Shown here one piece after another: positions 1 to 62,139 of a stretch of 64,000 nt of DNA. Both the position numbers and the translations under genes were made by a program. Below the pieces are notes generated by a model. The model did no database searches. It had not been told where the DNA came from and saw nothing but the letters and a program-made list of their open reading frames with translations. Within the stretch, counting starts at the first letter, position 1; the number at the start of each line of letters is the position of its first letter. Source of the DNA: a virus. The stretch lies in IMG/VR virus record IMGVR_UViG_3300036823_000117, positions 32,001 through 96,000 of that record. One strand, given 5' to 3'.

Positions 1-292
1 CGTAGTTGATCGCCTGGGCGAGAACTTCCGCGGTCGGGGTGCGCGCCCACCCGCTGACCCGGTTGCCGTGCCCGTCCGACACCGGGCCGCCCACCCGGGC
101 AAACTCCGGATCGACAGCTATGACTGCCTGCCAGAGCGTCAGCCCGAAACCGACGTCGGGATTCAAGACGATGGAATGCGCGTCGTCCCACGTCGCCTCG
201 CCCGGCTGCTCCACGGCCGCCATCAGCCGGGCCCGCACGTCCTCGCCCAGTGCCCCGAACATGTTGCTCGCGGCGTTCAGGTCAATCTGCAT
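1..292 (-). CDS. Hypothetical phage protein (runs off the window edge)
   Basis: ATG at 292, open to the edge (MQIDLNAASNMFG...TWDDAHSIVLN); last gene visible in the leftward operon. Confidence 0.6.
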   Translation of the reverse strand, partial: MQIDLNAASNMFGALGEDVRARLMAAVEQPGEATWDDAHSIVLNPDVGFGLTLWQAVIAVDPEFARVGGPVSDGHGNRVSGWARTPTAEVLAQAINY

Positions 293-2962: not shown

Positions 2963-3007
2963 TACTTCCCCCTCGCTTGAATGCTGCTCGGATGCTTTCT
3001 GGACCCG

Positions 3008-3349: not shown

Positions 3350-3379
3350 CTGGTGCTCCTTCCGCTTGCTCGGAATGTG

Positions 3380-4243
3380 TCAGGCCAGCACCGCGGCGAC
3401 CGCGGCCCGCTTATCTGCCCGCAGAAACATGGACCCGTCCGGGCGGACCCCCCACCACGCCCACCGCTTGAAACCGTTCGCCTTGTCTGTGACCTGGGCG
3501 CGGTAGGCGTGCCCGGCGCCTACTCCCCCGCGGCTGATTTCGACCCGGGCGCCGTCGTCTGTGTCGCGGGTGACGACTGGTCCGCGAACATGTCCAGCGT
3601 TCCCAGCGGGCACGCGGCCGGCGCCGGCGCCGGCTTCGGTTCCGGGAGCAGGTCGGGAAACAAGCTGCTCCCCGCGGTCTGCACAACCGCGCGGGCTTTC
3701 TTCCCCGGCGCTAGCGACTGGTCGAAATGAAGCGGGCTCATCTGGTCCCATGCCGTCATCAGCGGTGCCCCCATCGGTCGCGGCGCCGGCGTCCATGCCG
3801 GCGCGGTCCATGTCGTCGCGGTAAACCTGCTGTGCGTTCGCGTGCTGTGCCAGGTACGCGGTCACGGTCACCCGCGGGTTTTCCAGCCAGAAATTCGCCA
3901 GCTCTTCCGACGCGTGCGCCATGGCGAACCGCTCGCTTCCCGACCACAGCCGGAACGCGTCGGTCAAAGGCGAGCCGGCGCGGACCAGGTACCCGTTGGT
4001 GACTGCCTCCGCGGCCAGGTACTGCGCATAGGCCGCCTGCCGCCATTCCTCGCGGAGCGCGTTGTTCCGCGCGTTTACCTCACGCCAGTACGCGGCGGCC
4101 TGGTCGCGGCGGGTGACTATGGCCAGGATGACGCGCTGCAACTCGGCGTCGGCGTCCGCGCATGCCCGGGTGAACAGGGCGGCCAGGTCGTCGTCTGTGA
4201 GCTTGGCCAGGTCGGCCGGCTTCACGTCAAGTGCTGTGCTCAT
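3380..4243 (-). CDS. Conserved actinophage hypothetical protein, probably leaderless
   Basis: QYLAAEAVTNGYL...ASEELANFW motif; ATG 6 nt after the -10 box. Confidence 0.7.
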   Translation of the reverse strand: MSTALDVKPADLAKLTDDDLAALFTRACADADAELQRVILAIVTRRDQAAAYWREVNARNNALREEWRQAAYAQYLAAEAVTNGYLVRAGSPLTDAFRLWSGSERFAMAHASEELANFWLENPRVTVTAYLAQHANAQQVYRDDMDRAGMDAGAATDGGTADDGMGPDEPASFRPVASAGEESPRGCADRGEQLVSRPAPGTEAGAGAGRVPAGNAGHVRGPVVTRDTDDGARVEISRGGVGAGHAYRAQVTDKANGFKRWAWWGVRPDGSMFLRADKRAAVAAVLA

Positions 4244-4249
4244 GGCTAC

Positions 4250-4323
4250 ACACTAGCGCTACGGGTTACGTCTGTCAAGCACAACGCAGCAACCCCGCGC
4301 GCCGTACCGGCCGCGCGGGGTTT
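4250..4323 (-). promoter_or_regulatory. Hairpin-promoter cassette 3
   Basis: TTGACA (4278-4273), 17 nt, TAGTGT (4255-4250); hairpin 4291-4323. Confidence 0.8.
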
Positions 4324-4337
4324 CTGCAGGTCACGTT

Positions 4338-4919
4338 CTACGACGGGCCGGCCGTGCCGTTCCGCCGCACGATGCACGACCCGCCGCCGACCTTGCCGCG
4401 TGTCGTGCCCGTGCCGCCCCACACGATCACGGACACCCCCGGGCCGGGCCGCCAGTGCACCCACCCGGGAAGCGCACGCGCCGGCGTCACGCTCGCCACG
4501 TCACCCGGGACCGAGCACACCCGCGCCGACCCGCCCCACTGCTCCGCCGTCATCGCAGCATCCGCAGCCGCAGTGAACGCCATCACGAATGCATCCCCCG
4601 AACGCGGGTCATTGACCGCGGCCGCCGTACGGGCCAGCGCCGGATCCCCCGCGCGGCGCAGCACCCGCGCCCACGCGGCCGCCCAGCTCGGCTCATTCCA
4701 CGGCAGCCCGTCCGAACCGATGACCAGGCCGGCCATGCGCGACACGTGCCGGTAAGCCGCGAGAAGCTTGGTGCAGTCCGGAACGGGCGCCGGGCGGGCC
4801 GCAGGCACGGTGGCAGCGTGCGCCAGCGCGGGCCCGGCAATTCCCGCCGAGCCGGCCAGCACGGCCGCCGCGGTAACGGTCACGGCCACGCGGGCCGCGG
4901 TGCGCATTGGGTTGCTCAT
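4338..4919 (-). CDS. Secreted protein
   Basis: N-terminal signal peptide ending PALAHAA. Confidence 0.6.
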   Translation of the reverse strand: MSNPMRTAARVAVTVTAAAVLAGSAGIAGPALAHAATVPAARPAPVPDCTKLLAAYRHVSRMAGLVIGSDGLPWNEPSWAAAWARVLRRAGDPALARTAAAVNDPRSGDAFVMAFTAAADAAMTAEQWGGSARVCSVPGDVASVTPARALPGWVHWRPGPGVSVIVWGGTGTTRGKVGGGSCIVRRNGTAGPS

Positions 4920-5000
4920 TGGTTCCCCCTACAGGTTGGTTTCGGTGAGCCCTAGCGGGCTGCACGCGCCACGGGCGGCACCCGCGGCGCATGCGGTGCG

Positions 5001-5213
5001 CTAGGCCGGCTTCGCTACGCTGAACGTCGTGAACTGATTGACCAGGTAGGTACGGCACAGCGCGTCCCTCACCGTGTCCGGCAGGTGACCGGCCAGGTCG
5101 GCGAACGTCTCGCCCGGGTCTAGCCCGTACTCACGCGCGTAGTCGGCGCGCTGCTCCGGGGTCATCTTGAACGTGATGGTCACGCTCGTGAATTCGTCTT
5201 GCTCGGTTGGCAT
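5001..5213 (-). CDS. Hypothetical protein
   Basis: AGGAG RBS; MPTEQDEF... Confidence 0.6.
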   Translation of the reverse strand: MPTEQDEFTSVTITFKMTPEQRADYAREYGLDPGETFADLAGHLPDTVRDALCRTYLVNQFTTFSVAKPA

Positions 5214-5289
5214 GTCGTCTCTCCTGTAGCTCGTGACCTGCCCTAGCTGGGCAACAAGGCCCGCGTGCAAGACGCGGGCCCGATGCCCG

Positions 5290-5637
5290 CTAGGACATGC
5301 ACAGCGATGCGGCCGCCGCGCCGGCCTGCAATTTCCAAAGCGTGTCCGGGTCAATGCGCGTGTCGGTCCGTACCTCTACCGACTGACCAGCGGCCAAAAG
5401 CAGCGTGCTCGTCTGCCCAACGAAATCAGCGTGCATCGCGTGAGTCATGCCAGTGATGCCGTTGTGCCGAACGTCGGTCACGACATGCCACCCGCCCATG
5501 TCGCGCACCAGGTCACCAGGCATCAGCGTTCGCCCGGGCCGGCTCTCGGACGTGACGAAACCTCCGGTCGGCGATGCGCCGGCCAGGTCGAACAGGATGG
5601 AATTCCCGTCCTTGCCAAGTGCGTCAATCGTGATCAT
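5290..5637 (-). CDS. Hypothetical protein
   Basis: AGGAG RBS; operon context. Confidence 0.55.
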   Translation of the reverse strand: MITIDALGKDGNSILFDLAGASPTGGFVTSESRPGRTLMPGDLVRDMGGWHVVTDVRHNGITGMTHAMHADFVGQTSTLLLAAGQSVEVRTDTRIDPDTLWKLQAGAAAASLCMS

Positions 5638-5718
5638 GGTCAGTTCTCCTGTCTGGTGATCTGCCCTAGCGGGCATGGCGCCGGCCCGGGTAGCCCGGGC
5701 CGCACCGAACGCGCTAGG

Positions 5719-5979
5719 TCAGTCGCAGCAACCGCAGCACGGCGCGTCTTCGCAGCGGCGGCTGGACATGGTGACCCGCGCGCCGCTGTTGGTGTACGCG
5801 TACTTGGAATCGCGGCGGCCGGCACGTGCGCGCCGCGGCGCGTCCATTGCCTGGCATGCCTGGTGAGTGATGGCGCCGGGCCCGCCGTAGTTGATCCGGG
5901 CGCCGGCGGGAATCTCCGGGTCGGGGCACTGCGGGTCACAGCATGTGTCGGAGCGCTTCGCTGTGATGACTGTTGCCAT
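5719..5979 (-). CDS. Cys-rich small phage protein
   Basis: C-terminal RCEDAPCCGCC motif. Confidence 0.7.
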   Translation of the reverse strand: MATVITAKRSDTCCDPQCPDPEIPAGARINYGGPGAITHQACQAMDAPRRARAGRRDSKYAYTNSGARVTMSSRRCEDAPCCGCCD

Positions 5980-6018
5980 GGTGTCCCCCTAGGGTCCGTG
6001 TGCTGTGCTGATAGCTAC

Positions 6019-6088
6019 ACAGTAGAGCTACGCGTTAGACGTGTCAAGCCACATAGAAAAACCCGCGCGCCGTGTCGGCACGCGGGTT
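6019..6088 (-). promoter_or_regulatory. Hairpin-promoter cassette 4
   Basis: TTGACA (6047-6042), 17 nt, TACTGT (6024-6019); hairpin about 6059-6088. Confidence 0.8.
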
Positions 6089-6105
6089 AGACCAGGCCGG
6101 GCAGG

Positions 6106-6462
6106 CTACGCGGTCCGCGGCTTGATCTCGGTACGAAACTCCCCGTCGTAGCGGTACACCACTACCGGCGCCGGCCCGTCCAGAAACCCGCGGAGCAGCG
6201 AATCCGTGTGCGCGTGATACCCGATCCCCTCATACGACGTCACCGCGCCGCCGGCCGACAGCTCCGCCCCCCACGTACCCGCACACGAGATACTTACCTC
6301 GGTCGCTTCCCCGCTGATGCGCAGCCCTTCCGCGTACTGCTCCGCGGCACGCTCCGGATTCAGCGTGTCGTAGTGCGTGCCGAAATTCTCCCAGGCCAGG
6401 TAAGCCCCAGCGGGCAGGGCCCGCAGCACCGCGTAAGACTCCCCGTGCGTGATCTCACTCAT
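6106..6462 (-). CDS. Hypothetical protein
   Basis: GGGGG RBS; coding-like composition. Confidence 0.6.
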   Translation of the reverse strand: MSEITHGESYAVLRALPAGAYLAWENFGTHYDTLNPERAAEQYAEGLRISGEATEVSISCAGTWGAELSAGGAVTSYEGIGYHAHTDSLLRGFLDGPAPVVVYRYDGEFRTEIKPRTA

Positions 6463-6558
6463 GATCGCTTCCCCCTCGCGTAGTGCCGGATCTTGCCTTG
6501 AGTGCCCGGCGGTGCATTCGCTGCGTACCGCGCTAACCGGCCCGCCGGGCGGGTAGTC

Positions 6559-6753
6559 CTACAGGGTGCAGCAACACGGCGTGCAGTACCGGCACCCGCT
6601 GCACACGCAAGACAACCGGGCCGGGAGCACAACCGCGAGAGTCTCGGCGTTGCCCACGCGGCCGCCCGAAACCCGCGCGCCGCGGTCCGCCAGCTGGTCA
6701 CTGGTGAGCATCCGCACCGGGCGAGTGTTCCGGCTGGCAACAATCGGTTCCAT
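6559..6753 (-). CDS. Small protein with Cys-rich C-terminus
   Basis: GAGGG RBS; ends CVCSGCRYCTPCCC. Confidence 0.45.
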   Translation of the reverse strand: MEPIVASRNTRPVRMLTSDQLADRGARVSGGRVGNAETLAVVLPARLSCVCSGCRYCTPCCCTL

Positions 6754-6795
6754 GATCGTTTTCCCTCTCGTGTTCGCTGGTATCGGTTCGCTGGC

Positions 6796-6975
6796 CTAGC
6801 GGGCCCACGCGTAGGGCAGGAATCCCCCGCGGGTGAGCCACTCGTCAAGCACTTCGACGTGCTCCGCAAGCCGGAGCGATGCCTCCTGGAAGTGCGCGAT
6901 GCTGTCTCCCGGCTGCGCGCCGTTCACGTCCGCGATTGCCTGCCGGATTGCGGCGAGCGTGGCGTTGGGGTCCAT
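6796..6975 (-). CDS. 59-aa conserved actinophage protein (absent from the ORF track)
   Basis: MDPNATLAAIR...LAEHVEVLDEWLTRGGFLPYAW; GGAGG RBS. Confidence 0.75.
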   Translation of the reverse strand: MDPNATLAAIRQAIADVNGAQPGDSIAHFQEASLRLAEHVEVLDEWLTRGGFLPYAWAR

Positions 6976-7010
6976 GTGACTGCCTCCCGTTGTGCGTTGC
7001 TGTTAGCTAC

Positions 7011-7084
7011 ACACTAAGGCTACGCGTTAGGCATGTCAAGCGACACGCGGAAACTCCCCGTGCCAGCGTTCGGCACGGGGAGTT
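7011..7084 (-). promoter_or_regulatory. Hairpin-promoter cassette 5
   Basis: TTGACA (7039-7034), 17 nt, TAGTGT (7016-7011); hairpin 7052-7084. Confidence 0.8.
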
Positions 7085-7095
7085 GGGAGAGCCGG

Positions 7096-7344
7096 CTAGC
7101 TCCGCGCGCGCTTGCACTCCGCGACCCACGCAGGGTCACTGCCCGCCACGAGAGACGCAGCGCGGGCTAGCGTGTCACGCGCGCCCAGCTCCGCGCCGGC
7201 CGCAGACCAGGCCATGCCCGCGGACACGTAACCGACGCGTTCCCCCGACTCGTGAAACACCGTGTGAGTTGCGCCGGCCGGCGGTTCCTCCCAATCCGCG
7301 ACCGGCAGCACGTCGTAATGCCCGTGATCAGTGTCAACGTCCAT
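7096..7344 (-). CDS. Hypothetical protein
   Basis: GAGGAG RBS. Confidence 0.55.
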   Translation of the reverse strand: MDVDTDHGHYDVLPVADWEEPPAGATHTVFHESGERVGYVSAGMAWSAAGAELGARDTLARAASLVAGSDPAWVAECKRARS

Positions 7345-7345
7345 A

Positions 7346-7687
7346 TCAGATCTCCTCATCTTCCGGCCGCACCGTGTGACCCGTGATCGTGCGGAGCTTG
7401 TAACCGTCCGCGGGCCGGTACAGCACCGCGACCGCGGCCAGGTCGCTGACACGGGACACGAAACGCGAACCGTCGGGGCGGGTGACTTCGGTAACGGTCT
7501 CCAGGCCGGCCGGCGGGTAGTTCTCGGCTATCCACCCGTCCGCTTCAGGCCGCGTGTCGAAAGCGCGCTCGTAACCGTCCGATTCCGTCACGATGTGCTG
7601 CCACGGGTGACTGATCACGTTCCGCATTCGGTCGCCATCCCACCTGGTCCAGGTGACGCGAACGCGCTTGACGGTCGGCATGTCCAT
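7346..7687 (-). CDS. Hypothetical protein
   Basis: Tightly packed in the operon. Confidence 0.55.
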   Translation of the reverse strand: MDMPTVKRVRVTWTRWDGDRMRNVISHPWQHIVTESDGYERAFDTRPEADGWIAENYPPAGLETVTEVTRPDGSRFVSRVSDLAAVAVLYRPADGYKLRTITGHTVRPEDEEI

Positions 7688-7885
7688 TTACTTTGTCCCC
7701 TTGCGTGTCGGCTTGCAATGGATCTTGTAACCCTCGGCGTGTGACCCGGTAACCGGTCCGTGCCGCGGTCCTACCTCGGCCAGGCAGTCGGAGCACGTCC
7801 CGTAGTGCAGGTTCACGCCCGGCCCCTTGGCCCGTACGGGCCCGCGTGCCCGCACCCTGGGCTGCGGAGGGTTCATCAAGCTCAT
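7688..7885 (-). CDS. Small putative Zn-binding protein, probably leaderless
   Basis: CSDC and HC motifs; TTGCCT-17-TACGTT-7-ATG. Confidence 0.55.
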   Translation of the reverse strand: MSLMNPPQPRVRARGPVRAKGPGVNLHYGTCSDCLAEVGPRHGPVTGSHAEGYKIHCKPTRKGTK

Positions 7886-7889
7886 AGAG

Positions 7890-8384
7890 GTAAACGTATA
7901 CCTCTACTGTGAGGCAGGCAAGCCGAACCGCCGAACAGGTATACTCAAACTCATGGGCAGGCCAGCGCTACCACACGGACGCCACGTCACCATCAGCGCC
8001 AAAGTCTCCGACGCACAGCTAGCCGCGATAGACGCCGCACGCGGCCAGCTCTCACGCTCCGCATGGCTAGCGTCCGCGGCCGCAGCAGCCGCGCCACCTG
8101 CCGCCGGGCCCGCCGCGAGCTCCACACACACGCCGGCCACCGCGGATAGTCCGGCGCCGGCCGAGGTGAAGCGCACCAGGAAAGCCTCTCAGCCGCCCGC
8201 ACAGGCCGCCACGTGCCCGCACAGGGGACTGCAGCCTGGTGCTTACTGCCGTGCGTGTAAGTCAGTCGTGCCAGGCAAGCCATCGTGAGGCCTGCACTAC
8301 GGCACGGCAACAGGTAAACGTATACGGATACACCCCAGGTAAAGGTAAACGTAAACCAATACCCGGATACAAGTAAACGTATAC
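7890..8384 (+). repeat. GTAAACGTA(T/A)AC repeats, 4 copies
   Basis: Copies at 7890, 8314, 8345 and 8373. Confidence 0.8.
7953..8288 (+). CDS. Ribbon-helix-helix DNA-binding protein with C-terminal Zn knuckle
   Basis: MGRP...VTISAKVSDAQLAAIDAARGQLSRSAWL; TATACT 7 nt before the ATG; CPH...CRAC. Confidence 0.7.
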   Translation: MGRPALPHGRHVTISAKVSDAQLAAIDAARGQLSRSAWLASAAAAAAPPAAGPAASSTHTPATADSPAPAEVKRTRKASQPPAQAATCPHRGLQPGAYCRACKSVVPGKPS

Positions 8385-8662
8385 AGCAACCGGCGAACAC
8401 ACACTGAGCAAGGGTGACCCCCCGCGCGAAACCAGCGGCCGGCACGACTATGGACGTTGCGCGCGTGCGCGGTTCTACTAGCGGGGATGCTCGGCGGGGA
8501 TGCGCCGGTAAGGCGGCCGGTAAGCGGAGGGTTGCCCTGGCAGTTAGGCGATAACGGACAGCGGCATTGTGTTGGGTAGCTGTGTATTACCGGGCAATCT
8601 CGCGTTTGTGCAGGTCAAGGCTTCGCAGTTTGGCAAAGGCAAGCCATTGATAACGTAATGCA

Positions 8663-8690
8663 GCTTTACCTAAGGTTTATTATCGGCGCG
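8663..8690 (-). other. dif-like XerCD site
   Basis: CGCGCCGATAA-TAAACC-TTAGGTAAAGC; 11-6-11 layout resembling actinobacterial dif. Confidence 0.6.
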
Positions 8691-9084
8691 ACATTTAAGG
8701 CGCTTCCCGCATTCCCTGCCTTATCACCCACCTGCCCAGCTAGCACATGCCTGGCCATTCCCTCACTGTGCATACCGCAGCGAATGCGGACAGGTCACCT
8801 GGTCACGAGCTGGACATTCCCCCGCATAGGGGAGGGTGCATTCCTCCTATCCCACCCCATCATGCATGTGTGCATATCCACATGGGATCGGACATTGACA
8901 CCAAGCATCAATGCGACATGTCCGGGAATCAGGCCCATCCCACAACGGGGCGTACCCGGACAGGTCCCCACCCCCACATATCCCCCCCCACCCCCCCAAA
9001 CCGGCACGGGGTCACCCCCGGCGTATCCCTCTTGTCTGTGTATCCGATTTCCAAGACCATGTTTCCGTTTTGAGGGGGTTTGCC

Positions 9085-9567
9085 GTGCCGGGTCGTCCGA
9101 GGCGTCGTGTTGGGCCGCCTGCGGTGAGGGGCGGGAATGGTTCGTGGGATCAGTTCGCTCCGGGTAATTCGGCTGCGCTGGTTCACGGGGCTCGGAGCGA
9201 GGCGGTGTTTTCCCCGGTGGCTGAGGCGATCGCGGCGGAGGCGTGCGGGTCGGCGCCGGAGTACTTGTCGGACAGGTCGTTCCGGTTTGCGTTGCGGTCG
9301 TGGGCGGAGGCTGAGGCGCAGCTGCTGTTGTATGAGTCGTGGATGGAGCAGCTGCCGCAGAATGCGCGGTACAGCGCGAAGGGGGCGCAGGCTCCTCCGG
9401 TTGATCAGTGGCGGAAGCTGTCGGCTCATGCTGCGAATCTGCGGAAGCCGCTGGGCCTGGATCCGGTGTCCAGGGTGCGGATCGGGCAGTCGCTGGCCTC
9501 CCAGAACGTGGACCTGGCGCGGCTGGCGATGATGGAGTTCGGTGACGACGGCGAGGCCGAGGATTAG
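9085..9567 (+). CDS. Terminase small subunit
   Basis: FAPGNSAALVHGARS motif; LGLDPVSR; first gene of the virion module; GTG after GAGGGGG. Confidence 0.7.
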   Translation: MPGRPRRRVGPPAVRGGNGSWDQFAPGNSAALVHGARSEAVFSPVAEAIAAEACGSAPEYLSDRSFRFALRSWAEAEAQLLLYESWMEQLPQNARYSAKGAQAPPVDQWRKLSAHAANLRKPLGLDPVSRVRIGQSLASQNVDLARLAMMEFGDDGEAED

Positions 9568-9896
9568 GGTCTGAGCCAGGCGACGGCGCGGCGCCACCGT
9601 GGGGCCTGCGCGCGGGTGCGCTGTTCGTACGCGGCCTGGTACTCGGCGGTGTGCGTCTGGAGGTAGTCCTCGAGGTGGCGCTGGTCCTCGTCTTCGGGGC
9701 GGCTGTCGAGGAATTCGCGGAGCGCCCGGCCGGTCGTGACGCCGTACCGGCGCTGCAGGTGGCCGCACAGGGTGTCGTCGAGGTAGAACTTCCGGCTTCG
9801 CGCGTAGAGGTTCCGGCGGCCGTCGGGGAGGAACTCGGGGCCGAGGCATCCTGGCTGCCAGCAGTCGGTGACCATGTCCGGGCAGTTGATGCACAT
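9564..9896 (-). CDS. Hypothetical protein
   Basis: Member of the antisense cassette between TerS and TerL. Confidence 0.55.
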   Translation of the reverse strand: MCINCPDMVTDCWQPGCLGPEFLPDGRRNLYARSRKFYLDDTLCGHLQRRYGVTTGRALREFLDSRPEDEDQRHLEDYLQTHTAEYQAAYEQRTRAQAPRWRRAVAWLRP

Positions 9897-9899
9897 GGC

Positions 9900-10202
9900 T
9901 TACCTCGGCGCCGTGACGTTGAGGGTGGCTGCGCGGACGGGCATGCGGGTCATCTGCTGGATGCACAGGTCGAGGTCGTCGATGGCGAGGCCGGCGGTGG
10001 CACGGTAATGGCCGGCGTGACGCTCGAGGTCGGCCCAGGTGATCAGGTCCGGGATGCGGGCGCCCATGTCGCGGGCCATCCTGGTCGTGTAGCTGGCGAG
10101 GCGGGCGTCGGCGGTGACGATGGTGAGCTGCTCCGCGGCGGCGTACGCGATGAGCTCGGTGGTCTTGCCCGTGCCCCTGGCACCGGAGATGACGACGTCC
10201 AT
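9900..10202 (-). CDS. Miniature P-loop protein
   Basis: VVISGARGTGKTT and LAIDD. Confidence 0.65.
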   Translation of the reverse strand: MDVVISGARGTGKTTELIAYAAAEQLTIVTADARLASYTTRMARDMGARIPDLITWADLERHAGHYRATAGLAIDDLDLCIQQMTRMPVRAATLNVTAPR

Positions 10203-10669
10203 CACGCGGCCGGCGCGACGGGGACGGTGACCTCCAGGACGGTTTCCCCGAACCGCCCGGGGGTCGTGGTCTCGCCGGGCAGGGCCAGCATGACGCACCC
10301 GGCGTCCAGGGTGGCGATGGCCAGCTGCTCCCGCGCCCGTTTCCTCGCGTGCTCCAGGACCCCGGCCATCGCCCCGTTCGCGTACTCCGACACGGTCGCG
10401 GTGCACTGCACCGCGCGGGCCCGGGCAATCGCGGCGCCCTCGACAACTTCCATGACGAGGGGGCCGCGGCCCGGGGCCACTTCCAGCCGGAACTCCGGCG
10501 GGCCGCTGAACAGGGACGTGACCGGCTGCTGGTAACTCCGCGGGTAACACGCCGGCTGGTAGCTCACGTCGAACTGCGCGGCGGCCGGGTGGTCGCAGGA
10601 CACCCGGCGGACCATCCCGTCGGAGTACTCCGCGACCACGCAGATCCGGGTCACGTACGCCGTGCTCAT
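10202..10669 (-). CDS. Hypothetical protein
   Basis: Stop/start coupled to its neighbours. Confidence 0.5.
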   Translation of the reverse strand: MSTAYVTRICVVAEYSDGMVRRVSCDHPAAAQFDVSYQPACYPRSYQQPVTSLFSGPPEFRLEVAPGRGPLVMEVVEGAAIARARAVQCTATVSEYANGAMAGVLEHARKRAREQLAIATLDAGCVMLALPGETTTPGRFGETVLEVTVPVAPAA

Positions 10670-56289: not shown

Positions 56290-56499
56290 GGCCCCAGCGA
56301 ATCACACGGCGGGTTCTACCGCTCTACCCGGTCCTTGTGAAGTCGGGTAGAAACCAGTGAACCCCCCGGTTGGCCTTGTGAGCCCGAAGCTCTTGGCCTA
56401 ACCGGGAGGTCCGATCACCGTGCTGGCGGTCAAGCCGGCCGGTGAAGTGGAACAGCCCTGGCCGGCTTGGGTCTCGTCCTCGGCCGGCTAGGGCCATCG

Positions 56500-56574
<75 letters not shown>

Positions 56575-56624
56575 ATCAGAAGACTACCGCACGTGACTGT
56601 CAGCCGGCTAGCTTCCTGGCCGGC

Positions 56625-57077
56625 TCAGCGTCCGTCACGGCGGGTGTACGTGATGTAGGCGTGAATGGTGCCGTTGCCCTCGAAGCTCACCGGGGAGATC
56701 TCCGCTGACGGCCAGCAGTTGCCCGCCCGCGACCATGCTTGCGGGATGAGCCGGGTGTAGGCCGGCCACGCTTTGAACTTGCCGCTCTCATCCGACGAGT
56801 TGCTGCCGTTGTTGCACAGGTCGTCCCAGTCGGCTTCGATGCGGCCGCGGCCTTCCCCAGGGATCGTGATCGTCCCCCAGGCGTGGACGCGGATGCTGGC
56901 CGGGTCGCCGATCAGCTGGCCGCCGATGTTGCAGATCGGGTAGCCGCCTGTGGCGTGGCAGGCCCCGAGGTAGTGAACCTTCGCGGCCGCGGGAGTTGCG
57001 GCGTGCGCCGGGAAGGCGGCCACGGCAGCAAGGCCGAGGCCGCTTACTGCGGCTGCGGCCAGCCGGGTAAGGAACAT
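56625..57077 (-). CDS. Secreted Cys-containing protein
   Basis: Signal peptide MFLTRLAAAAV...PAHA. Confidence 0.65.
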   Translation of the reverse strand: MFLTRLAAAAVSGLGLAAVAAFPAHAATPAAAKVHYLGACHATGGYPICNIGGQLIGDPASIRVHAWGTITIPGEGRGRIEADWDDLCNNGSNSSDESGKFKAWPAYTRLIPQAWSRAGNCWPSAEISPVSFEGNGTIHAYITYTRRDGR

Positions 57078-57126
57078 GCTGGCCACGGTATCGGCCACAA
57101 CGGTTACTCCGCAGCGGGAAACGCAC

Positions 57127-57202
57127 TGGCTGCCCAGCCCGGACTCGAACCGGGGCACGCCCCTTAGGAGGAGGCAGCTCTATCCACCTGAGCTACAGGG
57201 CA
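57127..57202 (-). tRNA. tRNA-Arg(CCT)
   Basis: Loop CT CCT AA; encoded CCA. Confidence 0.85.
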
Positions 57203-57203
57203 T

Positions 57204-57277
57204 TGGAGGCCGCGGCGGGAATCGGACCCGCGTGAGACGCTTTGCAGGCGCCCACCTAGCCGCTCGGTCACGCGACC
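57204..57277 (-). tRNA. tRNA-Cys(GCA)
   Basis: Loop CT GCA AA; T-loop GTCCGA. Confidence 0.85.
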
Positions 57278-57281
57278 CGGG

Positions 57282-57353
57282 TGCTCCCAACAGGAATCGA
57301 ACCTGTGTTGCCAGCTTCGGAGGCTGGTGTCCTATCCCCTAGACGACAGGAGC
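57282..57353 (-). tRNA. tRNA-Arg(CCG)
   Basis: Loop CT CCG AA. Confidence 0.85.
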
Positions 57354-57419
57354 ATGATCATGGACAGGGACCTGGGCCCCGGCCCGGGTGTGTGTGCCCG
57401 GCTTACGCCCTGTCCTCCG

Positions 57420-57501
57420 TGCGCCGTGATGGATTCGAACCACCGTGTCCGTAGATCGCGGTTTACAGCCGCGCGCATTCGCCCACTCTGCCAACGACGC
57501 C
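57420..57501 (-). tRNA. tRNA-Tyr(GTA)
   Basis: Loop CT GTA AA; long variable arm. Confidence 0.85.
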
Positions 57502-57589
57502 TAGCCCGGAGTCTTTGAGTCCCGCCTGCTCGCGAACAGGCTCTCCGGATCACCCGTGCATGCTCGGGTGCTGGCCATGCCAGGGAACA

Positions 57590-57664
57590 TGGGGAGGACA
57601 GCGGGAATCCAACCCGCGTGACCGGGTTCACAACCCGGCGCTCTAGCACTGAGCTATATCCTCA
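57590..57664 (-). tRNA. tRNA-His(GTG)
   Basis: Loop TT GTG AA; T-loop GTTGGA. Confidence 0.8.
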
Positions 57665-57665
57665 G

Positions 57666-57737
57666 TAGCCGCTGGAGGTACCGATCCTCCGGCCCCCGAT
57701 GTGTGAGATCGGTGCTCCGCCATTGAGCTAAGCGGCC
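57666..57737 (-). tRNA. tRNA-Val(CAC)
   Basis: Loop CT CAC AC; atypical T-loop. Confidence 0.8.
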
Positions 57738-57738
57738 G

Positions 57739-57810
57739 TGCGCCCAGGAGGACTCGAACCTCCATTGCCGACTTCGTAGGCCGGCGTCCTATCCGTTGAA
57801 CGATAGGCGC
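57739..57810 (-). tRNA. tRNA-Arg(ACG)
   Basis: Loop CT ACG AA. Confidence 0.9.
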
Positions 57811-57811
57811 T

Positions 57812-57886
57812 TGGTAGTCGCTCGAGGTGCTGACCCTCGGACCTTCCGCTAGTCGGGCGGATGCTCTGCCGCTGAGCTAAGCGACC
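57812..57886 (-). tRNA. tRNA-Val(GAC)
   Basis: Loop CC GAC TA; atypical T-loop. Confidence 0.75.
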
Positions 57887-57963
57887 AGGTGGGCTGCCCC
57901 GGCAACTCGGACCGCACGTCTGCGTGTCCTGCTACCGAGGGCAGCCCTTTTCTTAGAGTTGAG

Positions 57964-58036
57964 CGAGACCGACGAGATTTGAACTCGCGCTGTCACCTTG
58001 ACAGGGTGATGTGCTAACCGCTGACACTACGGCCCC
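57964..58036 (-). tRNA. tRNA-Asp(GTC)
   Basis: Loop CT GTC AA. Confidence 0.9.
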
Positions 58037-58098
58037 ATTCCACCGGACTTGACGTTGCCCTGACCACCGTCAGGGTCGAGGCGCCGGCGTTGCCTTCG

Positions 58099-58169
58099 CT
58101 CCCCCACCTGGACTCGAACCAAGATCCACCGGTTAACGGCCGGCCGCTCTGCCCTTAAGCTATGAGGGA
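58099..58169 (-). tRNA. tRNA-Asn(GTT)
   Basis: Loop CC GTT AA. Confidence 0.85.
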
Positions 58170-58324
58170 TTGGACCTGCGAAAATGTCAGACCGCATCCA
58201 TATACTTAGCGGATGCAAGTCACCGAACTAGAATGCGGGCATTGCCAGAATCTCGTGGCGCTGGACAAGCGGTGCCATTGGGAGTTCGACCACGGCTACC
58301 TGCTCCTGGTCGATGGGCGCTTCG

Positions 58325-58397
58325 TCGCGGGGAAGGGACTCGAACCCTCGACCTGCGGGTTATGAGCCCGCCGCGCTACCAACTGCGCCACCCCGCA
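58325..58397 (-). tRNA. tRNA-Met(CAT), initiator-like
   Basis: GGG CT CAT AA CCC. Confidence 0.9.
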
Positions 58398-58398
58398 G

Positions 58399-58469
58399 TA
58401 GCCCCACAGGGACTCGAACCCTGTCTCGCGGGTCGAAGGTCCGCGGTCCTACCCATAGACGATGGGGCC
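58399..58469 (-). tRNA. tRNA-Glu(TTC)
   Basis: Glu-type D arm; loop CC TTC GA. Confidence 0.7.
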
Positions 58470-58482
58470 TTGCTGTCCTGCG

Positions 58483-58553
58483 TACCCAGTAGGGGTGTCG
58501 AACCCCTGCTGCCGGGCTGAGAACCCGGCGGTCTGCCGTTAACCTAACTGGGC
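58483..58553 (-). tRNA. tRNA-Glu(CTC)
   Basis: Loop TT CTC AG. Confidence 0.85.
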
Positions 58554-58558
58554 TAGAG

Positions 58559-58631
58559 CGCGTCGACCAGGAATCGAACCCAGATCCACCGCTTAGAAGG
58601 CGGCCGTGCTTGTCCGTTGCACCACCGACGC
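58559..58631 (-). tRNA. tRNA-Arg(TCT)
   Basis: Loop CT TCT AA. Confidence 0.85.
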
Positions 58632-58632
58632 G

Positions 58633-58703
58633 TGCCTCGCCAAGGTACCGACCCCTGTTCCATCGGGTAAAAGCCGATTGCATCACCTTAATGCTTGCGA
58701 GGC
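58633..58703 (-). tRNA. tRNA-Lys(TTT)
   Basis: Loop CT TTT AC; atypical T-loop. Confidence 0.75.
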
Positions 58704-58704
58704 G

Positions 58705-58778
58705 TAGCCCACCAGGGGATTGAACCCTGCATCTCCTGCTTATAAGGCAGGCTCCGTCAACCAGGCGGATCGTGGGCG
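58705..58778 (-). tRNA. tRNA-Ile(TAT)
   Basis: CCTGC CT TAT AA GCAGG; atypical D arm. Confidence 0.75.
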
Positions 58779-58779
58779 T

Positions 58780-58856
58780 TGGTAGGTCACCAGAGAATCG
58801 GACTCTGCATCACCGCGTTATCAGCGCGGCCTCTCCAACCAGGCGAGACGTGACCA
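58780..58856 (-). tRNA. tRNA-Ile(GAT)
   Basis: Loop CT GAT AA; atypical D arm; encoded CCA. Confidence 0.8.
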
Positions 58857-58857
58857 G

Positions 58858-58950
58858 CGGAAGTGGTGAGGGTCGAACTCACAAGGCGACTCGCGCCGCT
58901 CGGCTGTTTTCGGGACAGCTGCCGTCAGCCTCTCATCGGCTTGCACTTCC
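58858..58950 (-). tRNA. tRNA-Ser(CGA)
   Basis: Loop CC CGA AA; long variable arm. Confidence 0.85.
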
Positions 58951-58954
58951 ATCG

Positions 58955-59039
58955 CGGAGGACGGACTATTCGAAAGCCACGTCTTGCGACGCGCATCCGC
59001 TAGCAACGGAGCCCGGCTCGCCTGTCCGGTTCATCCTCC
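58955..59039 (-). tRNA. tRNA-Ser(GCT)
   Basis: Loop TT GCT AG; long variable arm. Confidence 0.8.
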
Positions 59040-59040
59040 A

Positions 59041-59123
59041 TGGTGCGCTCGGAGGGATTCGAACCCTCATGCCCGTAGGCTCCGGGTCTGAGCCGGATGC
59101 GTCAGCCGTTGCGCCACGAGCGC
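59041..59123 (-). tRNA. tRNA-Leu(CAG)
   Basis: Loop CT CAG AC; encoded CCA. Confidence 0.9.
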
Positions 59124-59342
59124 GTGACGGGGAGTCCCTGGAGCGCAAGTACCGAGCCGTGCGGTGCCAGCCGACGGCATTTCATCGCTCTCCCTGACTG
59201 CGCCGGCCGCTGCACTGGCACTATCTCGCGGCCGTACGATCCGGGACTTGATCCCCGGGGCGCGTGCACGCGCCCGCTTGTCGCCGCACGTATTAGTTCC
59301 GGGGATTCCCTTCCGGTGACCCGGTACCGTGCGGCAGTAAAA

Positions 59343-59419
59343 CGGGGAGTGCTCTGCCTGGCTGAGCTACACCGGGCCTTGGCCCGGCGACCGGATTTGA
59401 ACCGGCGACCTCTCCCCCG
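59343..59419 (-). ncRNA. Circularly permuted tRNA-like RNA A (YrlA-type module)
   Basis: Order: T arm, loop-closed acceptor stem, D arm; ends pair GGGGAG/CTCCCC. Confidence 0.8.
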
Positions 59420-59491
59420 AGCGGAAGACGGGATTCGAACCCGCGACCCTTACCTTGGCAAGGTAATGCTCTACCGCTGAGCCACCTCCGC
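59420..59491 (-). tRNA. tRNA-Gly(GCC)
   Basis: Loop TT GCC AA. Confidence 0.9.
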
Positions 59492-59572
59492 ATGAGCCGG
59501 GTTCCAATCTGATGCCTAGGGTTTCCCCAGTGGTATAGCGGCTACAGTCACCCGACAAACCTCTACCGTACG

Positions 59573-59645
59573 AGCCACCGTTCGGTTTCGAACCGAACAC
59601 CTTCTGCCTACCATGCAGACGCTCTGCCAACTGAGCTACGGCGGC
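59573..59645 (-). tRNA. tRNA-Thr(GGT)
   Basis: Loop AT GGT AG. Confidence 0.85.
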
Positions 59646-59655
59646 GTGATTATCG

Positions 59656-59728
59656 CTGGCGGCCCAGGATTCGGACCTGGACTGGCGGGGCCAAAACCCG
59701 CAGGGCTGCCTGGTTACCCCAGCCGCCA
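59656..59728 (-). tRNA. tRNA-Gln(TTG)
   Basis: Loop TT TTG GC; T-loop GTCCGA. Confidence 0.85.
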
Positions 59729-59733
59729 TCGTG

Positions 59734-59806
59734 AGCCCGCTAGAGGTCTCGAACCCCTCGCCTGCCCTTTACAGGAGGGCCGCTCTACCAGCTGAGCTAA
59801 GCGGGC
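59734..59806 (-). tRNA. tRNA-Thr(TGT)
   Basis: Loop CC TGT AA. Confidence 0.85.
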
Positions 59807-59885
59807 AAGTCTCCCACCGGCCGCAGGACTCGAACCCTGCGTGTCTGCCGACGACGCCGGCCGTCGCTGCGTTACCGGTGGTTCG

Positions 59886-59959
59886 TGTCCACGGTGGGAT
59901 TCGAACCCACACTGTCCAGCCCCTCATGCTGGCGCCTCCTGCCGTTGGGCTACGTAGAC
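59886..59959 (-). tRNA. tRNA-Leu(GAG), short variable arm
   Basis: Loop AT GAG GG. Confidence 0.8.
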
Positions 59960-60068
59960 ATGGCGCGCGAGACAGGGCATGGACCCGTCAGCACGATAAT
60001 GGCGCTTGCGCCTCCCCCATGCCGTCATGGGCGCTACGCCGCTGAGCCGCGAGTATCCCCGCAGCCAG

Positions 60069-60141
60069 AGCCTCCGACTGGCCTCGAACCAGTTGCCTTC
60101 CGCTTACGGGGCGGACGCTCTGCCAGGTGAGCTACAGAGGC
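60069..60141 (-). tRNA. tRNA-Thr(CGT)
   Basis: Loop CC CGT AA. Confidence 0.85.
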
Positions 60142-60284
60142 ATGGGAAGTTCTGGCCAGCCAAGGTCAACCCATCCGTCCCAGCCGGTCACGCCTGACAG
60201 CGTTGCCCCGGCCCAGACGTCGTACCACTCGGCATCCAGATCATCCATGACAGGGCCAGACGTCGCACCGCCTGGTCTTGTCCG

Positions 60285-60355
60285 CTGGGAACCCTGGATT
60301 CGAACCAGAACCGACGGAGCCAGAGTCCGCCGTGCTGCCGTTACACCAGCTCCCA
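60285..60355 (-). tRNA. tRNA-Gln(CTG)
   Basis: Loop CT CTG GC. Confidence 0.9.
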
Positions 60356-60360
60356 TTGAG

Positions 60361-60435
60361 TACGGGCGGGGAGAGTCGAACTCCCAAGCAACCCGTTTTG
60401 AGCGGGCCAGGTCTGCCAGTTCCCGTCACGCCCGC
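60361..60435 (-). tRNA. tRNA-Leu(CAA), short variable arm
   Basis: Loop CT CAA AA. Confidence 0.85.
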
Positions 60436-60440
60436 TCGAG

Positions 60441-60513
60441 TGCGTCGCCTCGGCCTCGAACCGAGAGCCCGCGGAGTAAGAGTCCGCTGCACGTCCACTT
60501 GTGCTTGCGACGC
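60441..60513 (-). tRNA. tRNA-Lys(CTT)
   Basis: Loop CT CTT AC. Confidence 0.85.
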
Positions 60514-60517
60514 ATAG

Positions 60518-60588
60518 AGCTCCACCGGGGAATCGAACCCCGCTCGTCAGCTTGGAAGGCTGACACATCACCACAATGCTTGTGGAGC
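60518..60588 (-). tRNA. tRNA-Gly(TCC)
   Basis: Loop CT TCC AA. Confidence 0.85.
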
Positions 60589-60589
60589 G

Positions 60590-60664
60590 TGGCGATGGAC
60601 ATCGGACTCGAACCGAGACTGCCCCACTTATGGAGGGGCGTGCTGCCAGTTACACTATCCATCT
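60590..60664 (-). tRNA. Atypical tRNA, probably Met(CAT); anticodon register ambiguous
   Basis: D and T arms and CCA present; loop TCCATAAGT between CCCC/GGGG. Confidence 0.55.
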
Positions 60665-60716
60665 GACGCCGGGAGCGACCCGCCGTCCAGGAGCTGGCTG
60701 ATCAGGCCGTGCTCCG

Positions 60717-60789
60717 TGCCTGCCGCTGGAATCGAACCAGCCACCCCCGCCTTTTCAGAGCGGTGCTCTACCGGATGAGCTAGACAGAC
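60717..60789 (-). tRNA. tRNA-Phe(GAA)
   Basis: Loop CT GAA AA. Confidence 0.9.
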
Positions 60790-60874
60790 TTATGCAGGGG
60801 TTCTCCGGCTTGCGCCTGCCCAGGAGGACCGCGGCCCGAAGTCCGCGCGCCCTACCCTGCTCCTGGTCTCCGAG

Positions 60875-60946
60875 TCGGGATACAAGGACTCGGACCTTGT
60901 CTGCCTGGTCCCAAACCAGGCGCGCTGACCCTTACGCGATATCCCG
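60875..60946 (-). tRNA. tRNA-Pro(TGG)
   Basis: Loop TT TGG GA; T-loop GTCCGA. Confidence 0.85.
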
Positions 60947-60950
60947 TTCA

Positions 60951-61031
60951 CGGGGAGTGCTCTACCAGCTGAGCTACCGGACGCCCCTTGGGGCGCCCAG
61001 GCCGGACTTGAACCGGCGACCTCTCCCCTCG
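60951..61031 (-). ncRNA. Circularly permuted tRNA-like RNA B (YrlA-type module)
   Basis: GGGGAG AGGTC GCCGG TTCAAGT CCGGC, closed stem, TA GCTC AGCTGGTA GAGC A CTCCCC. Confidence 0.8.
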
Positions 61032-61104
61032 TGGAGCACCGGGGACTCGAACCCCGCACATCCTGCTTGCAAAACAGGTGCTCTACCTGATGAGCTAGCG
61101 CCCC
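61032..61104 (-). tRNA. tRNA-Ala(TGC)
   Basis: Loop TT TGC AA; G3-U70 pair. Confidence 0.9.
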
Positions 61105-61248
61105 ATTGCCCGGTCCCGGCCAGCCCGCGGCGTACCGCGAGCCGGCCAGGACCGGAGTCTTACTGCGCGGCCCTGGCTCGGCCGCGCTGCGTTTCCCGCT
61201 GTGGATTTGTCAATGCACAGACCCATTGCCCCGGAGGGTCGGGTACCG

Positions 61249-61319
61249 CTGGGCCAGAGGGATTCGGACCCCCATCGCCGGTTTTGGAGACCGGAGCTCT
61301 GCCGTTGAGCTATGTCCCA
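61249..61319 (-). tRNA. tRNA-Trp(CCA)
   Basis: Loop CT CCA AA; T-loop GTCCGA. Confidence 0.85.
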
Positions 61320-61321
61320 TT

Positions 61322-61359
61322 AACGAGAAAGCCGCCCTCCAGGGGCTCCTGGGGGCGGC
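61322..61359 (-). terminator. Attenuator-type intrinsic terminator in front of the tRNA array
   Basis: GCCGCCC CCAGG..CCTGG A GGGCGGC followed by TTTCTCGTT. Confidence 0.75.
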
Positions 61360-61378
61360 GTCTTCGTAGTGTTTGCCC

Positions 61379-61480
61379 CTACGTTGACGCCTTGGTCCCG
61401 AACGTGTCCAGCAGCATGGCTCGCGAGCAGCTGGTGGCGGTGTGCCGCTGCTGCTCGTACCTGGGCTGGTTGCTGGTCAT
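61379..61480 (-). CDS. Putative 33-aa leader peptide
   Basis: MTSNQPRYEQQRHTATSCSRAMLLDTFGTKAST; ATG 7 nt after the -10 box. Confidence 0.65.
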   Translation of the reverse strand: MTSNQPRYEQQRHTATSCSRAMLLDTFGTKAST

Positions 61481-62139
61481 GGATCCAACTGTACGCGAGG
61501 GGTCGGGCAGTCGGCAACTGCATTTTGGGTTGCGTCGAGGTCGGTGATGATTTTGCTGATTGTCTCGGCGGCGACGGGGCGGAGGTTCCAGGCGTCAAGA
61601 CCGACGTGGACCATTTTTCCGCGCCATTGTGGTTCTCCGCGGAACGGGGTGAATGGCAGTGCGTCGACCTGGGCGCGCTCGGCTCCGTGGGTGTGGCCGT
61701 GGAGCAGCCATTTGCCTTCGTCGCGGAGCCGGTACTGGGTGTGGCGGTCTTCGTCGGAGTGGTCGCCGTAGTAGGGAAAGTGGGACAAGAGGACTTCGGT
61801 GCCGTCGATTTTCCGGCGGGCGTACTGCTGGATAGACGCGAAGTACTGGAGCCACAGCCGCTGGGTTCTGTGCGCGTCCCTGTGGGCTGGCCAGGGGGCG
61901 TCGTGGTTGCCGGTGATGAGGTGGATGGTGCCGTTGAGCCGGGCGACCCAGGGGAGGATCTCGGCTGGTTTCCCGAGGCCTACGTCGCCGAGGTGCCAGA
62001 CGGTGTCATCGCGGCCGACCGCGGCGTTCCAGTTGGCGACGATCGCCTCGTCATGGTCAGGGGCGGTGTCGAACCCGCGGAGCCTGCCGACCATGGCGTG
62101 GGTGAAATGGGTGTCGGAGGTGAAGAACTGGCCGCCCAT
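61477..62139 (-). CDS. Calcineurin-like metallophosphoesterase
   Basis: SDTHF, HLGD, GNHD and HGHTH motifs. Confidence 0.9.
   Translation of the reverse strand: MGGQFFTSDTHFTHAMVGRLRGFDTAPDHDEAIVANWNAAVGRDDTVWHLGDVGLGKPAEILPWVARLNGTIHLITGNHDAPWPAHRDAHRTQRLWLQYFASIQQYARRKIDGTEVLLSHFPYYGDHSDEDRHTQYRLRDEGKWLLHGHTHGAERAQVDALPFTPFRGEPQWRGKMVHVGLDAWNLRPVAAETISKIITDLDATQNAVADCPTPRVQLDP
61488..61517 (-). promoter_or_regulatory. Promoter of the leader/tRNA operon
   Basis: TTGCCG-18-TACAGT. Confidence 0.65.

Follow-up and report, generated by a model that had tools for sequence, protein, structure and literature searches.

A short upstream open reading frame (uORF) followed by a terminator is reported to sense general translation stress at whiB7 in Actinobacteria (bioRxiv 10.1101/2023.06.02.543512; statements on whiB7 refer to an excerpt of that report). 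According to this excerpt, whiB7 is activated by knock-down of transfer RNA (tRNA) or synthetase genes, and Cys is the one amino acid absent from the uORF of M. smegmatis. Here we describe a cassette with the same order of parts which stands before an array of 34 tRNA genes in the genome of a soil phage. The cassette lies in a window of 64,000 nucleotides (nt), bases 32001-96000 of the 118,586-bp virus record IMGVR_UViG_3300036823_000117 (completeness 97% by CheckV, G+C 68.9%), and occupies the approximately 200 nt separating a phosphoesterase domain from the first tRNA. All positions given are those of the window unless stated otherwise. On the minus strand the cassette consists of a promoter candidate, an open reading frame (ORF) of 33 codons, here called the mini-ORF, a hairpin containing the stop codon (hairpin A) and an intrinsic terminator (T).

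As in the whiB7/wblC leader, a short uORF and then a Rho-independent terminator precede what would be regulated, the uORF is broad in amino acids, and the host phylum is likely the same, Actinobacteria being a guess of ours from 69% GC and actinophage-like protein matches. Unlike whiB7, for which the excerpt describes an antiterminator excluding the terminator, only 3 of the 12 terminator pairs overlap with another structure here. The whiB7 uORF is described as Ala-rich whereas the phage mini-ORF has 3 Ala in 33. Furthermore, the regulated genes would be phage tRNAs, the ORF would be leaderless, and there is no sequence relationship. Since whiB7 is known, a translation-sensing logic at this locus would not be new in kind.

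The trp, his, leu, thr and ilv attenuators share the series promoter, leader ORF, terminator and operon, as well as a stop codon inside the first downstream hairpin. In contrast to these, the phage leader lacks both runs of regulatory codons and the alternative pairings 1:2, 2:3 and 3:4, and the core of T never opens in our model. Ms5788A, a mycobacterial polycysteine leaderless ORF of 90 nt, is likewise a leaderless short ORF heading a polycistronic transcript in Actinobacteria, and the ribosome occupancy of its 3' end is reported to control downstream structure (bioRxiv 10.1101/834739, in excerpt). It was shown there to act without transcription termination, at the level of translation, which differs from the phage cassette, where only a transcriptional effect could matter because the downstream genes are tRNAs. 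The Anabaena trn operon is a long accessory tRNA array induced by translational stress (PMC8421152; PMC10272220, both in excerpt), and would resemble the phage array if the latter were also tied to the state of translation. It is a bacterial array, and the excerpts describe control by a repressor, TrcR, binding repeats over the -10 box, and not by a leader ORF with terminator. Finally, T closes a block of protein genes with a GC-rich stem and U residues in the manner of an ordinary operon-end intrinsic terminator, from which it differs by having its own candidate promoter and mini-ORF in front and, 11 nt behind, co-oriented genes with no recognisable promoter.

We favour the reading, with a probability of about 0.45, that this cassette is a gate made of a promoter, a leaderless mini-ORF and a leaky terminator, which would dose and insulate the tRNA array. 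Host RNA polymerase would enter from the upstream SLOG/AAA-ATPase/phosphoesterase operon and, probably, also at the internal promoter, from which a leaderless transcript would begin at the ATG. Ribosomes would translate the mini-ORF, T with its weak U tract would halt some of the polymerases, and those reading through would produce the tRNA precursor. Because tRNA-Trp starts 11 nt after T, cleavage by RNase P at this tRNA would leave T on the upstream RNA as a protective 3' hairpin. In this way T would set the dose of the array and insulate it from the protein-coding operon. The sequence elements, their rarity, the coding-like statistics and the lack of a promoter motif downstream are observed, whereas we infer that the promoter is used, that the ORF is translated, that termination is partial and that the tRNAs arise by read-through. 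Read-through may depend on whether the mini-ORF is translated, and the observations can be explained without this.

Terminator, promoter and mini-ORF

T has the layout of an intrinsic terminator, a stable GC-rich stem-loop abutting a U-rich tract. Its predicted energy is -25.3 kcal/mol, a stability found in none of 12,480 sampled 29-nt windows (0.18% reach -20 kcal/mol). The other hairpin-plus-U sites ending gene blocks of the phage are built in the same way, with a GC stem and then a U run. The U run of T is the shortest among the strong terminators of the phage, having 3 leading U versus 4-6, and T therefore fits a leaky terminator. A generic consensus scan missed T, whose stem is bulged. 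The stop of the mini-ORF is 19 nt from T, and tRNA-Trp begins 2 nt past the U-rich tract UUUCUCGUU. Hairpin A alone has -17.0 kcal/mol and is moderately unusual, as 4.0% of 10,310 sampled 35-nt windows are equally stable. The trinucleotide GCC (61359-61357) is shared, forming the last 3 nt of hairpin A and the first 3 nt of T. For the 171-nt leader as a whole the fold has z = -4.3, and 0 of 200 shuffles fold equally well.

Candidate promoters on the minus strand between 56300 and 61700 were collected in a relaxed search (-35 hexamer with at least 4 of 6 matches, 16-19 nt, TANNNT). Two were obtained, namely TTGCCG-18-TACAGT before the mini-ORF and one inside a tRNA gene. Apart from the hit inside a tRNA gene, this strand region has no sigma-70-like promoter motif in the array or between the array and T; a promoter downstream of the terminator had been named in the first-pass annotation of this DNA as an observation that would overturn its reading. 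Because no promoter is recognisable downstream of T, transcription of the array has to cross T. The terminator stands between leader ORF and tRNAs without an intervening promoter motif, which is the arrangement of an attenuator. A promoter in the gap between tRNA-Trp and tRNA-Ala was considered and rejected, as no TANNNT hexamer follows the TTGACA at 61213-61208 at a distance of 16-19 nt.

The distance from the TACAGT candidate to the ATG (61480) is 7 nt, in agreement with the layout used to recognise leaderless genes in actinobacteria (TANNNT and a start codon 6-8 nt downstream). The mini-ORF would be leaderless if transcription starts 7 nt past the -10 hexamer. The ATG also overlaps the TGA (61479-61477) of the metallophosphoesterase gene as ATGA, and the promoter motif sits within the last 40 nt of that gene. 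In both strands of the 118.6-kb genome the pattern TTGNNN-16..19-TANNNT occurs 19 times, in six cases with ATG or GTG 5-9 nt behind it. Four of these six open ORFs of 33, 65, 115 and 287 codons, all on the minus strand, with a spacing of 6-7 nt and a G+C content at third codon positions (GC3) of 0.79-0.94. Since the layout recurs in this way (4 of 19 motifs), leaderless promoters are apparently used in the phage. Searches of Pfam and PHROGs with the mini-ORF and the three other leaderless-type ORFs gave nothing useful.

The mini-ORF has G+C contents of 0.45, 0.58 and 0.94 at its three codon positions. Third positions are G or C in 31 of the 33 codons, the probability of at least 31 being approximately 6e-4 per frame. 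Using a codon table made from 70 long ORFs of high GC3, it scores 0.37 bit per codon, compared to 0.47 +/- 0.22 for windows of real genes, and only 1.7% of the 299 ORFs of 28-45 codons in the genome match this score. The periodic, coding-like signal on the minus strand stops at the borders of the mini-ORF. Because of the GC3 periodicity and the gene-like codon score, the mini-ORF looks translated, now or formerly. An antisense gene on the plus strand (frame 60792..61547), in which the GC-rich third positions are shared, was rejected as the source of this signal: it scores 0.24 versus 0.37, the signal ends at the borders of the minus-strand ORF, and the frame crosses tRNA genes.

Seventeen amino acid types occur in the mini-ORF peptide, which is unremarkable (P 0.09 against 11,523 windows of the phage's proteins, 0.13 for a random draw). 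The codons AGG, CGA and TCA have frequencies of 4.4, 2.0 and 3.3 per 1000 in phage genes. When codons below 5 per 1000 are counted as rare, the mini-ORF has 3 in 32 against an expected 6.5% (P 0.34), and rare codons are not enriched. Phe, Gly and Lys are confined to codons 26-33. A hairpin predicted over codons 8-19 could, as a guess from the folding model, be a pause hairpin.

The individual elements described in the first-pass annotation were all present on the minus strand: the promoter with its 18-nt spacer and the ATG 7 nt later, the 33-codon ORF with 17 amino acid types and the codons AGG and CGA, the stop-containing hairpin sharing GCC with the base of the terminator, and tRNA-Trp 2 nt after the U-rich tract, as well as the overlap of the ATG with the phosphoesterase stop.

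Elsewhere on the minus strand of the genome, five of the 19 motifs are near-identical promoters with TTGACA, 17 nt, TAGTGT or TACTGT, and GTAGC, a conserved early-promoter family. Four are found at window positions 2198, 4278, 6047 and 7039, and the fifth lies outside the window, 641 nt before its start (genome 31359-39039). At 1061 there is an additional TTGACA motif with a different -10. Strong hairpins at 4284, 1067 and 6061 directly precede the promoters at 4278, 1061 and 6047. This arrangement resembles a cassette for early genes, in which a terminator is followed by a promoter and in some cases by a leaderless gene.

Relatives of the leader and of the array

The leader was compared using four peptides (P0121-P0124) together with short contigs aligned to the window. 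The peptides come from a phmmer search of 1.84 billion representatives, in which the mini-ORF peptide fell with this one cluster of four relatives and no other homologue was found. A tblastn search with the 33-residue peptide gave chance matches only (E 7-9), megablast and blastn against phage records matched in the tRNA-Trp part only, and exact-pattern scans of IMG/VR and GTDB genomes with the 5' part of tRNA-Trp, the ORF core and the T hairpin gave 0 hits. Parts of the stretch occur in twelve public sequencing runs on soil or permafrost, which belong to 6 studies.

The four relatives are 47-54 residues long, have the same stop and differ from the window peptide at 1-3 of 33 residues (P0121 at 94% identity). 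Trp and/or Ile replace an Arg and a Thr, giving 18 amino acid types in P0121 and 19 of 20 in P0122-P0124. Their extra N-terminal residues are explained by the absence of a single base close to the -10 hexamer; when base 61489 is deleted from the window, the upstream frame matches 11 of 14 (P0122) or 11 of 21 residues. In the proteins, in which silent changes are invisible, residues over both hexamers are unchanged, and the differences lie in the spacer and immediately upstream of the ATG. What is left of the -10 hexamer in the relatives would still fit TANNNT, at 6 nt from the ATG.

Contigs of relatives carry 61447 G>A (Arg12Trp) and 61395 G>A (Thr29Ile), and 61368 A>G is found in contigs of all three studies examined. 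The change at 61368 breaks a pair opposite the stop codon, and hairpin A can re-pair in a shifted register, bulging one A, at -15.6 kcal/mol (from -17.0). T stems are unchanged in the covering contigs, and in one contig the T loop is one base shorter (3 nt). The relatives found are near-identical only, and the stems carry no substitutions able to test compensatory pairing.

The contigs of relatives are 97-100% identical across leader and array. Array spacers are equally near-identical, with 0-1 differences per 116-256 nt. The conservation is explained by the recent shared ancestry of the entire array module and not by constraint on the leader. Positions 61489-61643 are uncovered by any contig of the four aligned runs. 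A 646-nt contig of one run (X2) has its last 135 letters on 61354-61488, whereas the preceding 511 letters are less than 80% identical to the window. This weakly suggests that a mosaic border lies close to the promoter, where the phosphoesterase gene ends (approximately 61488).

Relatives of the phosphoesterase were found at 5 loci in IMG/VR (at most 66% identity) and 11 loci in JGI metagenomes (at most 58%); for the AAA-ATPase no IMG/VR relative was found. ARAGORN found no tRNA flanking the phosphoesterase relative in the 10 of these 16 loci that were scanned (all except L005, L006 and L013-L016). Three of the records were searched whole, and two of them hold tRNA matches elsewhere (1 and 4).

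Four array starts from Gordonia phage Sixama and Mycobacterium phage ArcherS7 were inspected. None has a mini-ORF, a GC hairpin and a U tract directly before the first tRNA. The combination of uORF and terminator, which the first-pass annotation had proposed to look for ahead of other phage tRNA arrays, was absent from this sample, which is too small for a general statement. In Sixama a hairpin after the Ro-like gene is followed by approximately 150 AT-rich nt. No published case of a leader ORF and terminator before a phage tRNA array was seen among the literature matches listed. In Streptomyces phage Success the tRNA-Trp lies inside an array, and a 16-nt similarity upstream of it looks incidental.

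Sixama (115 kb) also has, at 2672-10238, a gene for a Ro-like RNA-binding protein, 192 nt and an array of 28 tRNAs. This pairing of Ro and tRNA array resembles that of the present genome, in opposite order.

Leader folding and competing explanations

A ribosome footprint of 28 nt was masked at 13 codon positions and pair probabilities were computed for each. The upper 9 pairs of T (the core) have p of at least 0.99 at all 13 positions. Because this core forms in every state, there is no classical antiterminator: an alternative fold excluding T under control of the ribosome was looked for, and only the bottom 3 of the 12 pairs compete with hairpin A. These three pairs have p = 1.0 for a ribosome at or beyond codon 27, 0.05-0.18 at codons 18-24, 0.33-0.74 at codons 6-15, 0.85-0.87 at codons 0-3, and 0.16-0.24 without a ribosome. 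For hairpins A and T alone, the state with complete A and short T has -36.4 kcal/mol and the state with short A and complete T -35.0 kcal/mol, a difference of 1.4 kcal/mol (p = 0.085 for complete T). Depending on the upstream context folded, the predicted occupancy of the bottom three pairs ranges from 0.05 to 0.96, and it is 0.96 and 0.93 when the RNA starts 100 and 160 nt before T. A ribosome stalled at Phe27, Gly28 or Lys30 would itself melt hairpin A in the model.

The same folding was carried out as a control on 16 other hairpin-plus-U sites, 4 of which are without a closed hairpin. At 5 of 11 other terminator-like sites the bottom three pairs are below 0.5 with 100 nt upstream (4 of 11 with 160 nt). 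In the folding model, competition at the terminator foot is common in this phage genome.

A 3-pair toggle is physically possible, since closing the last 2-3 stem pairs is reported to be essential for termination (PMC4824070). According to the same study, in E. coli a terminating ribosome represses terminators less than approximately 30 nt past the stop codon, and termination efficiency ranges from 0.12 to 0.8 by sequence at 17-18 nt from the stop. With the mini-ORF stop 19 nt before T, a distance at which repression can occur in E. coli, any effect of translation could have either sign.

A whiB7-like attenuator would use this toggle as follows. Once a ribosome reaches the final 6-7 codons, or the stop itself, it opens hairpin A and releases GCC, and T can form all its pairs and terminate transcription. 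A stall up to approximately codon 25 keeps hairpin A, and T, lacking its bottom 3 pairs and standing 3 nt from the U tract, is read through, by which poor decoding would induce the phage tRNAs. We regard this as unlikely. It would account for the order of promoter, mini-ORF, terminator and regulated genes with no promoter between them, for the dependence of the T base on ribosome position from codon 18 onwards, and for two folds differing by so little energy, given the reported need for the last 2-3 pairs; the peptide is flat (17 types here, 18-19 in relatives), and the logic is established for whiB7 in Actinobacteria (bioRxiv 10.1101/2023.06.02.543512, in excerpt). However, a true antiterminator is absent in the model, the toggle depends on context both at codons 0-3 and with longer upstream RNA, base competition is equal or worse at 5 of 11 control sites, hairpin A lies in the 4% tail, and the near-identity of the relatives over the whole array makes conservation little informative. 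The first-pass annotation had proposed such a translation-sensing attenuator. Of its interpretation the architecture stands, with a plausible leaderless promoter, a coding-like mini-ORF and a very strong terminator, whereas the switch is not supported, given the permanently formed core, the context-dependent toggle and the controls. Its further idea that the leader samples the whole tRNA pool is favoured by the flat composition and the 18-19 types of the relatives, and disfavoured by the unremarkable 17 types, the lack of rare-codon enrichment and the restriction of Phe, Gly and Lys to codons 26-33. The opposite sign, in which a ribosome trailing the polymerase hinders T so that translation gives read-through and failing translation turns the array off, is the least probable of the explanations we weighed. 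The E. coli repression distance (PMC4824070, in excerpt) argues for it; a footprint reaching approximately 13-15 nt past the stop leaves the 5' arm of T untouched in the model, and the degree of coupling would depend on the presumed actinobacterial host.

Two other explanations were weighed. Rather than T being mainly a terminator, hairpins A and T could be a stability or processing element protecting the 3' end of the upstream mRNA after the RNase P cut, with the ORF a fragment of a former gene. The 11 nt between T and tRNA-Trp, the weak U tract, the three amino-acid-changing differences out of three and the lack of homologues beyond the ORF's own cluster would suit this; we consider it distinctly unlikely, as the U tract directly abuts the stem like in the other terminators of the phage, the coding-like signal ends at the ORF borders, and the spacing between the ATG and a rare promoter motif is that of a leaderless gene. 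Phages classically pass terminators by timed antitermination, and a phage or host factor (N/Q-like or processive) might overcome T, then an efficient terminator, at a set time, which would make the array a delayed transcription class and the mini-ORF an ordinary small gene or a remnant. The strong T with no promoter motif after it agrees with such a factor, and the distinct early-promoter family elsewhere in the phage points to temporal classes. Against this, no antiterminator gene or nut/put-like site was identified, in a search limited to Rfam that returned no family in 61320-61520 at E of at most 1, and we judge it highly improbable.

Several observations also weigh against the leaky dosing gate that we prefer. 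A strong terminator without a promoter behind it is odd for constitutive expression of 34 tRNAs, and it is this oddity that speaks for regulation. With 8 of 12 consensus positions matched, the promoter was omitted by a generic scan with a threshold of 9. All three differences between the mini-ORF and its relatives change an amino acid and none is synonymous, which counts weakly against a small protein under ordinary purifying selection. The composition is flat, with codons starting with G at 6 of 32 compared to 41% in genes (P 0.006). Nineteen amino acid types, as in three of the relatives, have P 0.0016 among real windows and 0.004 for a random draw, in a test chosen post hoc that gives a hint only. 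Furthermore, none of the public runs in which the stretch was found is an RNA run.

Genomic setting and biological meaning

Positions of the features are listed below. The SLOG, AAA ATPase and metallophosphoesterase genes follow each other with overlaps of stop and start, and all three are co-oriented with the 34 tRNAs. The metallophosphoesterase has 733 homologues at E of at most 1e-20. Its C-terminal tail is unconserved among the closest relatives, and GC3 drops to 0.60-0.65 in the last 90 nt of the gene.

Table 1. Features of the leader and its surroundings (window coordinates)
Feature	Position	Strand	Remarks
SLOG-family gene	63922-63401	minus	
BCS1-like AAA ATPase gene	63404-62139	minus	
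Metallophosphoesterase gene, 220 amino acids	61477..62139	minus	Pfam Metallophos_2, E=8e-11
Sigma-70-like promoter candidate	61488..61517	minus	TTGCCG 61517-61512, 18-nt spacer, TACAGT 61493-61488
Mini-ORF, 33 codons, TAG (61381-61379) included	61379..61480	minus	Candidate leaderless; ATGA-coupled to upstream gene
Predicted hairpin inside mini-ORF, codons 8-19	61424..61457	minus	Minimum-free-energy and centroid folds
Hairpin A	61357..61391	minus	6 bp, AA/AA internal loop, 5 bp; stop codon in 5' arm
Intrinsic terminator stem-loop T	61331..61359	minus	12 bp, one bulged A, loop AGCC
U-rich tract UUUCUCGUU	61322..61330	minus	Directly 3' of T
tRNA-Trp(CCA), first gene of array	61248..61319	minus	ARAGORN; Rfam tRNA 58.6 bits
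tRNA array, 34 tRNA genes	61319 down to 56499	minus	ARAGORN

Within the array some further observations were made. ARAGORN did not find a tRNA-Ser among the 34 tRNAs (56499-61319). A tRNA-Tyr with anticodon ATA was called by ARAGORN at 60590-60663, for which Rfam gives 26.6 bits at a cut-off of 29. Matches to the Rfam family YrlA (Y RNA-like), sub-threshold with 31-38 bits at a cut-off of 69, lie in array gaps at 60933-61042, 57149-57254 and 59347-59414 on the minus strand. Two long GC-rich hairpins lie in the 143 nt that separate tRNA-Trp from tRNA-Ala (61105-61247, minus), the second ending 5 nt before tRNA-Ala. Additionally, an ORF of 177 amino acids with a signal-peptide-like N-terminus is found between tRNA-Arg(CCT) and the last tRNA-Met (56625-57158, minus), with no Pfam match.

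For large tRNA arrays of phages, a role against host defences that cut tRNAs is now under discussion. To our knowledge, hardly anything is known about how the expression of such arrays is controlled. Here, all recognisable transcription into an array of 34 tRNAs passes one very strong terminator behind a tiny, probably translated ORF, for which a probable promoter is also present. It is conceivable, and in our view doubtful, that a phage-borne attenuator of the whiB7 kind is at work, in which a leaderless ORF with 17-19 of 20 amino acid types would gauge the decoding of the infected cell by means of a 3-bp toggle. Ribosome stalling, for example after host anticodon nucleases have cut tRNAs, might then open the array, with its Y-RNA-like modules and Ro60 downstream, an outcome we hold to be just as doubtful. 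If true, the products of the array would re-close the gate, giving feedback control of the viral tRNA supply, and what is new would be the application of a known logic to a phage tRNA array together with a minimal toggle. If read-through depends on translation of the mini-ORF, decoding sensing of the whiB7 type would extend to viral tRNA genes. If it is independent of that translation, the locus would still be a clear case of a terminator serving as the dosing valve of a tRNA operon.

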